Translations under genes and position numbers: made by a program
Notes under the pieces: generated by a model
Database searches by the model: none
Seen by the model: only the letters and a program-made list of their open reading frames with translations
What the model was told of the DNA's origin: nothing
Part shown: positions 9,126 through 38,768 of the stretch, piece after piece
Numbering within the stretch: the first letter of the stretch is position 1
Layout: every line of letters begins with the position of its first letter
Assembly (NCBI GenBank): GCA_018970245.1
Contig: JAGWWT010000001.1
Location: 17,548-81,547, forward strand
DNA length: 64,000 nt
Direction: 5' to 3'
From: Patescibacteria group bacterium
GTDB taxonomy: Bacteria > Patescibacteriota > Minisyncoccia > Phycocordibacterales > PALSA-1337

Positions 9126-9758
9126 ATGATCATCAATTATCTCGGCGGCGAATTCGTGAAAGTCCAATTCGGCGACACCATCCTGGCGTTCAATCCGATC
9201 TCCAAGGACTCCAAGCTCAAGACCACGAAGTTCGGCGCCGACATCGTCCTCTCTTCGATCAATCATCCGGACATGAATGGCATCGACCAGATGTCATTCG
9301 GCGAAAAGAAGCCTTTCGTCATCAGCGGACCAGGAGAGTACGAGGTCAAGGGAGTCTTCATCAAAGGCCTGGCTTCCGGATCCGGCTATGACGGCGAGAA
9401 GCGGATCAATACTATATATACGGTCGGGCTCGAAGGGATGAATATCTGCTTCCTTGGCGCGATAGATACGCCCGAGCTGTCGAAGGAAGCCGATGAGGGC
9501 ATCGACGGCGTGGACATATTGTTCGTGCCCATAGGCGGCGAAGGCGTGCTTTCACCGGCCCAAGCCTACAAGCTGGCGGTCTCGATAGGCCCGAAGATCA
9601 TCATACCGGTCCATTACGGCGACATGGGCGGCAAGGACGCGCTCAAGCAGTTCCTGAAAGAGGCGGGGGATAATCCGAAGCCCGAAGCCAAGCTGACCCT
9701 CAAGAAGAAGGACCTGGAAGGCAAGGAAGCGGACGTTGTAGTCCTAGAAAAGGAGTAG
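9126..9758 (+). CDS. Metallo-beta-lactamase-fold metal-dependent hydrolase (UPF0173-like)
   Basis: About 210 aa from MIINYLGGEF. MBL-like His/Asp pattern (SSINHPDMNG ... IIPVHYGDMGG). Confidence 0.5.
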   Translation: MIINYLGGEFVKVQFGDTILAFNPISKDSKLKTTKFGADIVLSSINHPDMNGIDQMSFGEKKPFVISGPGEYEVKGVFIKGLASGSGYDGEKRINTIYTVGLEGMNICFLGAIDTPELSKEADEGIDGVDILFVPIGGEGVLSPAQAYKLAVSIGPKIIIPVHYGDMGGKDALKQFLKEAGDNPKPEAKLTLKKKDLEGKEADVVVLEKE

Positions 9759-10113: not shown

Positions 10114-10353
10114 ATGAGAAAGACGCTTTTAAAAGACAAATCATTTCCCGTTCTCCTTGAAAAAGATGAGGATGGCGTATATATCGCAGAGTGCCCAGTT
10201 TTCAGCGGTTGCTATTCTCAAGGAAGATCGATCGATCAGGCATTGAAGAAGATCAGGGATGTCATTAGTCTTTGCCTTGAGGAGAAAGATAATCTTGAAC
10301 GTGCGAAAAACTATTCGCCGGCAGATATCAGGCTTTATACCGTTAGGATCTGA
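10114..10353 (+). CDS. hicB: HicB-family antitoxin (UPF0150)
   Basis: 79 aa. VLLEKDEDGVYIAECPVFSGCYSQGRSIDQALKKI matches the HicB RNase-H-like fold signature. Confidence 0.7.
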   Translation: MRKTLLKDKSFPVLLEKDEDGVYIAECPVFSGCYSQGRSIDQALKKIRDVISLCLEEKDNLERAKNYSPADIRLYTVRI

Positions 10354-10355
10354 AT

Positions 10356-10604
10356 ATGCCGAAGCTTCCAGTCTGACCGCATGGCAAAGTCATTCGTGCG
10401 CTCGAGAAGCTCGGCTATGAAGTCGTCCGCCAAAAGGGAAGCCATATCAGGATGCGGCATCCATATAAGACGCCTGTCACGATTCCGACGCATAATCCGG
10501 TGGCGAAGGGCACATTGAGGAAGATCTTGCGCGATGCTGAGATCTCCGTTCAAGCATTGATAGACTTGGCCAGGAGCGCCGCCGGCGTTCCCGAATCTCA
10601 TTGA
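10356..10604 (+). pseudogene. hicA: HicA mRNA-interferase toxin with an in-frame TGA at codon 7
   Basis: Frame 1 reads MPKLPV*PHGKVIRALEKLGYEVVRQKGSHIRMRHPYKTPVTIPTHNPVAKGTLRKILRDAEISVQAL... This is a textbook HicA (MPKLPVLSGREVI...GSH.R..H...) interrupted by TGA at 10374-10376. There is no frameshift and no alternative in-frame start downstream. Confidence 0.7.
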
Positions 10605-10678
10605 TCGAAACGTCGATCTGGTCCCTCGTGTGGTGTAATTTTTCCAGACAGCCGCTCAACTAAGCCGTTGATCATGTC
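10604..10678 (-). repeat. Copy C of a conserved ~85-nt intergenic element
   Basis: The reverse complement aligns almost base-for-base with 16205-16289 and 38673-38757 (CATTYGCATGAC..AACGGCYTRGTTGAGC..AAAAATTACAMCACACGAGSGACCAGATCGACGTTTCRAT). Confidence 0.8.
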
Positions 10679-10696
10679 ATGCGAATGCGTTTTCGT

Positions 10697-10728
10697 AAAT
10701 AAAAAATCCCGCAACAAAGGGCTGCGGG
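10697..10728 (-). terminator. Rho-independent terminator
   Basis: Minus strand: CCCGCAgccctttgtTGCGGG followed by ATTTTTTATTT. It lies after the 10761..11090 gene and immediately before element copy C. Confidence 0.6.
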
Positions 10729-10760: not shown

Positions 10761-11090
10761 TCACAACCAATCATCCAACTTCTCATTGATCCTGTCGTAC
10801 CAGTACCAGCTAGCATGTCTTACGATGTGCACAGACCAGGTGATCACAATTGGTGCAAATAAGACCGTGATGCTGCAGGCGATCCACGCCAATAGGCTCG
10901 ATGCCTGAAGTATATTCAAGAAGACCAGGGCATTCGCCACGGACGCTATGATAACAATGCATGCTGTTAGCATTATCACAGAGAGAGCCGTTATATTGTT
11001 CGCAAACTTTGCGACTGATTCATCGGCACGCTGGCTGATAGACTGGTTGATCTCTTGCAGATAGGCGATCAGGTTCATTGCAATCCTCAT
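10761..11090 (-). CDS. Hypothetical multi-TM membrane protein (low-GC segment)
   Basis: 109-aa ORF with three hydrophobic helices. The local GC is clearly lower than the surroundings. Confidence 0.45.
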   Translation of the reverse strand: MRIAMNLIAYLQEINQSISQRADESVAKFANNITALSVIMLTACIVIIASVANALVFLNILQASSLLAWIACSITVLFAPIVITWSVHIVRHASWYWYDRINEKLDDWL

Positions 11091-16031: not shown

Positions 16032-16204
16032 ATGATTCCTGACGAGGCACCTGAATTGGGAGTTACTAGAGTTATTAACAGAAATAATTTCCACTATTCT
16101 TCTTCCCCCTATTCTTGTCCCAGGTTCATTTCCCATACTTTTCCAACATTCTGGGGAAAACCGCTATATGTGTGTACATATTACCCTTTTTCATTCACGG
16201 AAAT

Positions 16205-16289
16205 CCATTTGCATGACAAAATCAACGGCTTGGTTGAGCCGTCCCGCAGAAAAATTACAACACACGAGGGACCAGATCGACGTTTCGAT
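16205..16289 (+). repeat. Copy A of the conserved ~85-nt intergenic element
   Basis: ccatttgcatgacaaaatcaacggcttggttgagccgtcccgcagaaaaattacaacacacgagggaccagatcgacgtttcgat, with a T-rich tract just upstream. Confidence 0.8.
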
Positions 16290-16328
16290 GAATCGACGAA
16301 TAGAGACCAGTCATCGCGGGCCGCACGG

Positions 16329-38591: not shown

Positions 38592-38672
38592 TCAGAGATG
38601 GCAGGTTGACAGGCGCCGCGAGGCTTAGCGGATCACACGGTCCCTCGGCTCGGATTTTTTATTCACAGAAAC

Positions 38673-38757
38673 CCATTTGCATGACATTATTAACGGCCTA
38701 GTTGAGCTGCGCTGCAGAAAAATTACAACACACGAGCGACCAGATCGACGTTTCAAT
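38673..38757 (+). repeat. Copy B of the conserved ~85-nt intergenic element
   Basis: ccatttgcatgacattattaacggcctagttgagctgcgctgcagaaaaattacaacacacgagcgaccagatcgacgtttcaat, preceded by GGATTTTTTATTCAC after lysS. Confidence 0.8.
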
Positions 38758-38768
38758 AAGATCGATTC

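Follow-up and report, generated by a model that had tools for sequence, protein, structure and literature searches.

The DNA analysed here is a stretch of 64,000 nucleotides, referred to below as the window, from an uncultured Patescibacteria genome. It contains a compact two-gene toxin–antitoxin (TA) cassette in which hicB comes first and hicA second. The features of the locus are collected in Table 1. The initial annotation described an intact 79-residue HicB and a hicA ATG 2 nt further on, and its coordinates and frames (starts at 10114 and 10356) match the sequence exactly; its statement that codon 7 of hicA is TGA is also confirmed in the sequence. The spacer between the two genes consists of the letters AT. 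Read from its ATG, the hicA frame gives MPKLPV, meets the TGA, and then continues as PHGKVIRALEKLGYEVVRQKGSHIRMRHP..., remaining open until the TGA at 10602–10604. The context of the codon 7 stop, from −6 to +9, is CCAGUC UGA CCGCAUGGC. To judge from its position, the AGGAT in the 3′ end of hicB would serve as the hicA Shine-Dalgarno sequence. Upstream of the cassette, the gene p102 also ends in TGA, with 16 nt separating this stop from the hicB start, and it is the last gene in synteny with the sister species.

Table 1. Features of the hicB–hicA locus and its immediate surroundings (positions in the window)
Feature	Position	Strand	Basis or remark
p102, upstream host gene, 102 aa	9789–10097	+	No Pfam match
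hicB antitoxin gene, intact, 79 aa, TGA stop at 10351–10353	10114–10353	+	Pfam PF15919; full-length alignment to 82-aa homologs
AGGAT, Shine-Dalgarno-like, 6–7 nt 5′ of the hicA ATG, within the hicB 3′ end	10345–10349	+	Sequence reading
hicA toxin gene, interrupted; 82 sense-equivalent codons and one in-frame TGA at codon 7	10356–10604	+	
In-frame TGA, codon 7 of hicA, context GTC TGA C	10374–10376	+	Position of Trp7 (TGG) in close homologs
Gly28-Ser29-His30 codons (HicA motif, putative catalytic His), intact	10437–10445	+	Invariant alignment columns
Met33 ORF, 50 aa, longest start-codon ORF left in the hicA frame	10452–10604	+	25.7 bits, below cut-off of 27
Eight extra codons (AAGVPESH) and TGA stop, in no homolog	10578–10604	+	DNA and protein alignments
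Repeat copy 1, ~107–115 nt, adjoins the hicA end and carries the current hicA stop	10596–10715	+	
Terminator-like hairpin and T-run, 3′ of the minus-strand ORF p109	10708–10728	−	
p109, hypothetical membrane-like ORF	10761–11090	−	No Pfam match; variable segment between p102 and gyrA

The resemblance of the two proteins to HicA and HicB is, on profile scores and alignments, far beyond chance. HicA matches the Pfam profile HicA_toxin (PF07927) with 71.1 bits (E = 8e-20, cut-off 27), over residues 11–63, a stretch that lies wholly 3′ of the codon 7 stop. A search of 5.8 billion proteins returned 676 homologs at E ≤ 1e-5. HicB matches HicB_lk_antitox (PF15919) with 33.9 bits (E = 4e-8, cut-off 27), and does so only over positions 1–50 of the 123 in the profile, corresponding to the N-terminal toxin-binding part. 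The solved structures closest to it in sequence are PDB 2YZT and 6G1C. Profile searches of the 79 residues gave no HTH or RHH match, and no DNA-binding domain. Neither HicB nor HicA matched any NCBIfam model.

AlphaFold2 was run on residues 8–82 of HicA, and predicted the α-β-β-β-α HicA fold with a pLDDT of 89 (elements H-E-E-E-H(-H)). The top Foldseek matches to this model are 1WHZ, 6G26, 4C26 and 5YRZ, that is, the solved HicA proteins of T. thermophilus (TTHA1913, 1WHZ) and B. pseudomallei (4C26, and 6G26 together with HicB) and the HicAB of S. pneumoniae (5YRZ). Compared with 1WHZ the fold is the same (Foldseek TM 0.76/0.81, rmsd 1.2 Å). The solved proteins are 33–36% identical to the window HicA, and have the G-S-H motif in common with it. 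This motif, Gly28-Ser29-His30, is invariant in both HicA alignments (A1 and A6) and is kept in the window HicA, where it aligns with a G-S-(A) segment of the 6G26 HicA chain. The Ala opposite His30 in that chain is presumably the H24A catalytic mutant. There are also differences: the solved HicAs come from hicA–hicB operons or from modules with a DNA-binding HicB, and an N-terminal MPKLP(A/S/V)W extension is specific, relative to them, to the Patescibacteria clade of the window.

Class 2 hicBA systems have a reversed gene order, a small HicB (63–103 codons) and no recognisable DNA-binding domain (Gerdes, 2024, mBio, PMC10865869). The cassette described here has the same organisation, with hicB followed by hicA across a 2-nt spacer, a 79-residue HicB without a DNA-binding domain, and a HicA that is a single dsRBD-like domain of ~74 residues. 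HicB therefore shows every mark of the short class, in its profile match, its size, its lack of a DNA-binding domain and its place upstream of hicA. The cassette departs from the class in that the toxin ORF is broken at codon 7, that an eight-residue tail replaces the native stop, and that hicB is preceded by only ~20 nt belonging to the cassette, so that the cassette's own promoter is probably missing.

The nature of the change at codon 7 can be read from the close relatives. The 13 closest HicA homologs (77–89% identity), from Taylorbacteria and other Patescibacteria, all begin M-x-K-L-P-(A/S)-W-(P/S)-(H/F)-(G/P)-K, and thus all have Trp at codon 7. At the DNA level this codon is TGG in all six of the metagenome loci in which codon 7 encodes Trp (L006, L007, L008, L016, L021 and L077). 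On these two counts the alteration is therefore a third-position G>A transition, TGG>TGA, and, as read from these alignments, the hicA lesion is a one-nucleotide nonsense change. Trp7 is the sole Trp codon of hicA, and hicB has none. The initial annotation had taken the ancestral codon to be TTA, with Leu or Val at this position in homologs. Ile, Val or Leu do occur there, but in distant homologs only (~50–60% identity), and a Leu ancestor is refuted by the nearest 13 proteins and the six loci. Its core reading, of a single-nucleotide nonsense change in an otherwise intact HicA beside an intact HicB, is supported. The metagenome scan with HicA from which these loci were taken gave 80 loci, none of them from the source species, and it informs the ancestral codon and the base rate of disruption only.

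Within the species, the stop is fixed in all of the members sampled. Five further assemblies were retrieved by exact look-ups of the window HicB and of the upstream 102-residue protein, and all five have TGA at codon 7. Two of these are NCBI MAGs, GCA_028865675.1 (L001/L166) and GCA_028866085.1 (L167), and three are Logan run assemblies, SRR32006849, SRR32006850 and SRR32006840 (L168–L170). The first of the MAGs has 10 flanking differences from the window in 6,280 bp. In the second, hicB differs by a non-synonymous SNP (10339 A>G, T76A). In L170, hicA differs by a synonymous SNP located two codons past the stop (10382 T>C), which is the only hicA SNP seen in the population. Given that two assemblies carry SNPs of their own in the cassette, and that there are ten more in the flank, these assemblies are not copies of one consensus. 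As a separate observation, five of the ten differences between the window and GCA_028865675.1 fall within 91 bp (9239–9329), inside the MBL-fold gene, and this cluster may be a small recombination tract.

Past codon 7, Met33 (10452) is the only in-frame ATG, GTG or TTG. Its 50-residue product begins too late to include helix 1, strand 1 or the G-S-H motif, and it scores below the Pfam cut-off. An exact look-up of this product found it absent from the protein collection. Reinitiation at ATT13 or Met33 to give an active toxin was considered and rejected, since either there is no Shine-Dalgarno sequence or the catalytic motif has gone. An out-of-frame ATG at 10381 was likewise rejected as a functional start, because the SNP in L170 destroys it. 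With TGA at codon 7 and the next start at Met33, hicA has no uninterrupted ORF covering the full domain, and the locus is therefore classed as a HicA pseudogene and not as a functional member of the family.

A TGA in place of Trp raises the matter of the genetic code, since a recent report describes one family of Patescibacteriota, JAKLIH01, in which UGA has been reassigned to Trp (PMC13092985). A set of 47 non-overlapping ORFs of at least 150 residues, covering 76.5% of the window, was therefore examined. TGA is the most frequent stop among them (20 of 47), and the set has 172 TGG codons in 16,329 codons. The stops close to the site can be aligned individually: opposite the hicB TGA, L007 and L008 have TAA, and opposite the p102 TGA the sister-species locus L087 has TAG at the identical position (...PGKK*). 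These two aligned stops precede the codon 7 site by 21 nt and 277 nt, respectively. The gyrA gene is an uninterrupted ORF of 830 codons, and residues 1–830 align with the homolog from the sister species. The window thus has neither the in-frame TGA codons in many conserved genes nor the lack of TGA stops that code 4 would give. The tRNAs in the window are tRNA-Leu, tRNA-Lys and tRNA-Glu only; the genes for tRNA-Trp and RF2 are located beyond it. A stop-to-stop scan using only TAA and TAG, meant to reveal further genes interrupted by TGA, gave too much noise to be informative, the sequence being GC-rich. As far as stop usage and alignment go, these results establish that the species uses the standard genetic code, and the judgement in the initial annotation that TGA recoding is unlikely is upheld.

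The surroundings of the cassette indicate a second alteration of hicA. The nearest sister species among the matches listed (L087, gyrA 82% identical) has the order MBL-fold gene, p102, gyrA, and between p102 and gyrA it has a terminator and a pilin-like minus-strand gene, with no hicBA. The cassette is also absent from L088–L092. These loci come from a genome scan with gyrA, among the matches listed, which gives sister species for synteny and not the source species itself. The window from ~10096 to ~11140 is therefore lineage-specific. Compared at the DNA level with other hicBA cassettes, homology starts ~20 nt upstream of the hicB ATG, at the p102 stop. At the other end it extends as far as hicA codon 74, where the relatives stop, and the native stop has therefore been lost; the frame runs on for eight codons (AAGVPESH) into GC-rich DNA and a repeat that supplies the TGA. 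In the AlphaFold2 model this tail is disordered and of low confidence. The alignments therefore show that hicA carries two lesions, the nonsense change at codon 7 and the loss of the native stop (or a junction scar at 10578–10604). The initial annotation was right that the frame stays open after codon 7, but in taking it to run to the normal C-terminus it missed the loss of the native stop and the tail derived from the flank. The slot between p102 and gyrA is variable in a further respect: the 109-residue p109 of the window is unrelated to the gene found there in L087 (2181–2570, minus strand), which encodes 129 residues with the prepilin-type N-terminal motif GFTLIELL.

No sigma-70-like promoter was found on the plus strand upstream of hicB. 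The cassette is probably transcribed by read-through from p102 or other upstream genes, because only ~20 nt of cassette-specific DNA precede the hicB start. In three relatives (L002, L007 and L008) a sequence TTTTTGA-TA(T/C)CATT is conserved 5 nt upstream of the hicB ATG (alignment A2, columns ~20–55), which may represent the original promoter, an operator or a very short leader; of this sequence only the proximal part, TGATATTCGTATT, survives in the window.

The initial annotation placed the module in a low-GC patch. This fits hicB (42% GC) but hardly hicA, which at 54% is close to the window as a whole (55.6%). In GC3, hicB (0.44) is like the low-GC relatives, hicA stands at 0.65 and the host genes at 0.74–0.80; the difference between hicB and hicA is ~2.5 standard errors on ~75 codons each, and could reflect a mosaic origin or different amelioration. 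Searches of a phage collection gave no match to the cassette, and those of a plasmid collection gave only matches of 36–53% identity; there is therefore no known vector for the cassette.

The repeat adjoining hicA is present in three copies of ~83% identity with a variable centre of ~12 nt, at 10596–10715 (plus), 16181–16297 (minus) and 38646–38761 (minus). In window plus-strand orientation, copies 2 and 3 precede a methyltransferase gene (16449) and mraZ (38916) by ~150–270 nt, and copy 1, taken in the same orientation as these two on the plus strand of the window, points antisense into hicA. Rfam gave no match to the ~107-nt unit, RNA folding showed no significant structure whichever way it was read, and the sister-species loci lack it. 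The short-read assemblies L168 and L169 break within it. It could be promoter-bearing or mobile.

The age of the lesion can be judged only roughly. Comparison of the window with its nearest relatives shows saturation at synonymous sites (pS 0.70–0.92) and a dN of only ~0.08; with dN/dS affected by this saturation, it is the dN branch lengths alone that are comparable. A three-taxon split of dN gives ~0.042 for the window branch, as against 0.036 and 0.043 for two intact relatives. Wherever the clade is at least 90% conserved, the window HicA shows no private substitution. Because there is no other damage at conserved HicA positions, the codon 7 mutation is young relative to the divergence of the cassette from its nearest relatives; on this evidence hicA has therefore been functional for essentially all of its history, with the stop being recent on that scale. 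Diversity within the species, at ~0.1–0.2%, is too low to tell whether purifying selection on hicA is ongoing. HicB shows five private conservative substitutions (V>A, K>R, T>S, E>D, S>R) at sites at least 90% conserved, and a three-residue N-terminal deletion relative to the clade. It is 67–73% identical to the clade, whose members are 76–82% identical among themselves, and HicA has no such excess. This is no more than a mild hint that HicB may be evolving faster, perhaps under relaxed or shifted antitoxin constraint.

Lesions of this kind are not rare. In the 80 hicA loci of the metagenome scan, which were fetched regardless of gene calls, three unrelated loci have a single in-frame stop, each produced by one nucleotide change: CGA>TGA at codon 6 (L079:1446–1448), adjacent to the position affected in the window; CAA>TAA at codon 17 (L072:3049–3051); and an in-frame TAA at match codon 59 (L020). 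Three more are truncated or internally deleted (L037, L056 and L077), and visibly disrupted loci make up roughly 4–8%. Chromosomal TA systems are frequently pseudogenised, including decay of the toxin only, as found in a survey of Photorhabdus (PMC13617665). As in that survey, the toxin here is inactivated beside an intact antitoxin, and the module sits in a small variable spot between conserved genes. The inactive Photorhabdus toxins are mostly truncated, with only two point mutations, whereas the lesion here is a single nonsense transition that is fixed across all sampled strains.

On the basis of these observations, we conclude with good confidence that the locus is a decaying type II TA cassette of class 2 hicBA, in which hicA is a pseudogene and the antitoxin has been retained. 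Codon 7 of hicA, a TGG and the gene's sole Trp codon, became TGA through a G>A transition. Translation that begins at the hicA ATG would then break off once the hexapeptide MPKLPV has been made, and of the RNase toxin there would be none, or only traces from near-cognate readthrough. The hicB gene is intact and is probably transcribed by read-through from the upstream genes. Toxicity would thus be lost, and HicB would now be an orphan antitoxin. The initial annotation spoke of a knocked-out toxin and an orphan antitoxin; the stop and the intact HicB agree with this, but "knocked out" goes further than they do, since traces of HicA may still be produced.

Several other explanations have to be weighed against this. 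An error of sequencing or assembly, with a real codon of TGG, has in its favour just the general possibility of error in a metagenome-assembled genome. The initial annotation had listed it as an alternative, but with the TGA found in six assemblies from at least three accession series, distinguishable by their SNPs and including two with cassette SNPs of their own, it can be dismissed as having a negligible chance of being correct. Decoding of the stop is just as hard to credit, whether by genome-wide recoding of UGA (as Trp or Gly), by insertion of selenocysteine or by programmed frameshifting at the site. UGA reassignments do exist elsewhere in the Patescibacteriota, but here TGA is the commonest stop of long ORFs and aligns with TAA or TAG in homologs, and gyrA is uninterrupted. 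For selenocysteine, the homologs have Trp and not Cys or Sec at codon 7, and no SECIS-like signal is present 3′ of the stop; for frameshifting, the homologous frame goes on in frame 0 so that no shift is needed. A +1 frameshift like that of prfB was rejected on the same ground and for want of a slippery CUU-UGA context. It is somewhat less far-fetched, though still very improbable, that the cassette came from a donor in which UGA encodes Trp (for example JAKLIH01), where hicA was intact, and became a pseudogene upon arrival. The reassignment is known in one family of the phylum (PMC13092985), the cassette is located in a horizontally variable segment, and with one Trp codon in hicA and none in hicB its codon usage cannot contradict such an origin. 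Against this, hicB itself ends in TGA (as does the homolog L006), readthrough of which would give an out-of-frame extension; codon 7 is TGG in all close relatives; and the GC3 of hicA (65%) is nearer to the host than to the low-GC relatives, which speaks against a recent AT-rich recoded source.

The alternative with most to recommend it is that the toxin has been attenuated rather than lost, although we regard it as improbable. It proposes that the UGA-C is read at a low rate by Trp-tRNA(CCA), so that authentic HicA is made at ~0.1–4% of normal, and that HicB is kept since it is still needed, with selection maintaining the rest of the hicA frame. UGA followed by C is said, in work by Poole et al. 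from 1995, to be the weakest termination signal in E. coli, and C is indeed the base that follows the codon 7 UGA. The start codon and the Shine-Dalgarno-like motif of hicA are intact, conserved HicA sites show no private changes, the window branch has no excess of dN, and the only hicA SNP in the population is synonymous. However, a recent null mutation predicts an identical pattern, and a within-species divergence of ~0.1–0.2% gives no power to detect selection; equally, the stop and the tail are the only blemishes in a hicA frame that otherwise keeps every invariant residue, as a leaky, selected allele would also predict, and this counts against the pseudogene reading. Readthrough of UGA by Trp-tRNA, in competition with RF2, reaches ~2–4% in E. 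coli K-12 reporters and is heterogeneous among cells (PMC10570021), and the stop in hicA replaces exactly the residue that such near-cognate decoding inserts (PMC10570021). In this respect the site, with UGA at a wild-type Trp position followed by C, resembles the known cases of near-cognate readthrough by Trp-tRNA, in E. coli (PMC10570021) and with a tRNA-Trp having a 4-bp anticodon stem (PMC13092985). It is unlike them in that the TGA is not conserved in relatives and there is no stimulatory structure. The TGA is not recurrent, codon 7 being TGG in six of six loci of the clade with Trp at this position; the RNA fold 3′ of the stop is no better than that of shuffled sequences (z −0.66); and Rfam gave no match at the locus at gathering or permissive thresholds. 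Thus, of the marks of programmed readthrough, stop conservation and structure are lacking, and only the +4 C context fits. Trp codons are moreover intrinsically prone to nonsense changes, and G>A is the commonest type of mutation.

A more specific form of the attenuation proposal, to which we give only a slim chance, is that TGG>TGA acts as a dose switch, the UGA-C being misread at a low rate that varies from cell to cell and so regenerating exactly the wild-type HicA in a small share of translation events. If this were true, the cassette would work as a TA module that is strongly biased towards antitoxin and fires stochastically, and the retention of HicB and of every conserved HicA residue would be explained. 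Leaky readthrough would then be a new way to tune the dose of a toxin.

On the preferred reading, that of a decaying cassette, the locus is an ordinary feature, TA erosion at an early stage. The annotation would be amended accordingly, with hicA as a pseudogene and hicB as the orphan antitoxin of a class 2 hicBA cassette, and beyond this the locus would have little significance. Before a TGA found in frame at a Trp position is called a mutation in this phylum, it should be compared with the UGA reassignments that are known; here that check was negative. The cassette would then provide a clean, population-fixed example of the erosion of a chromosomal TA system, toxin first, in a reduced-genome lineage of the Patescibacteria.
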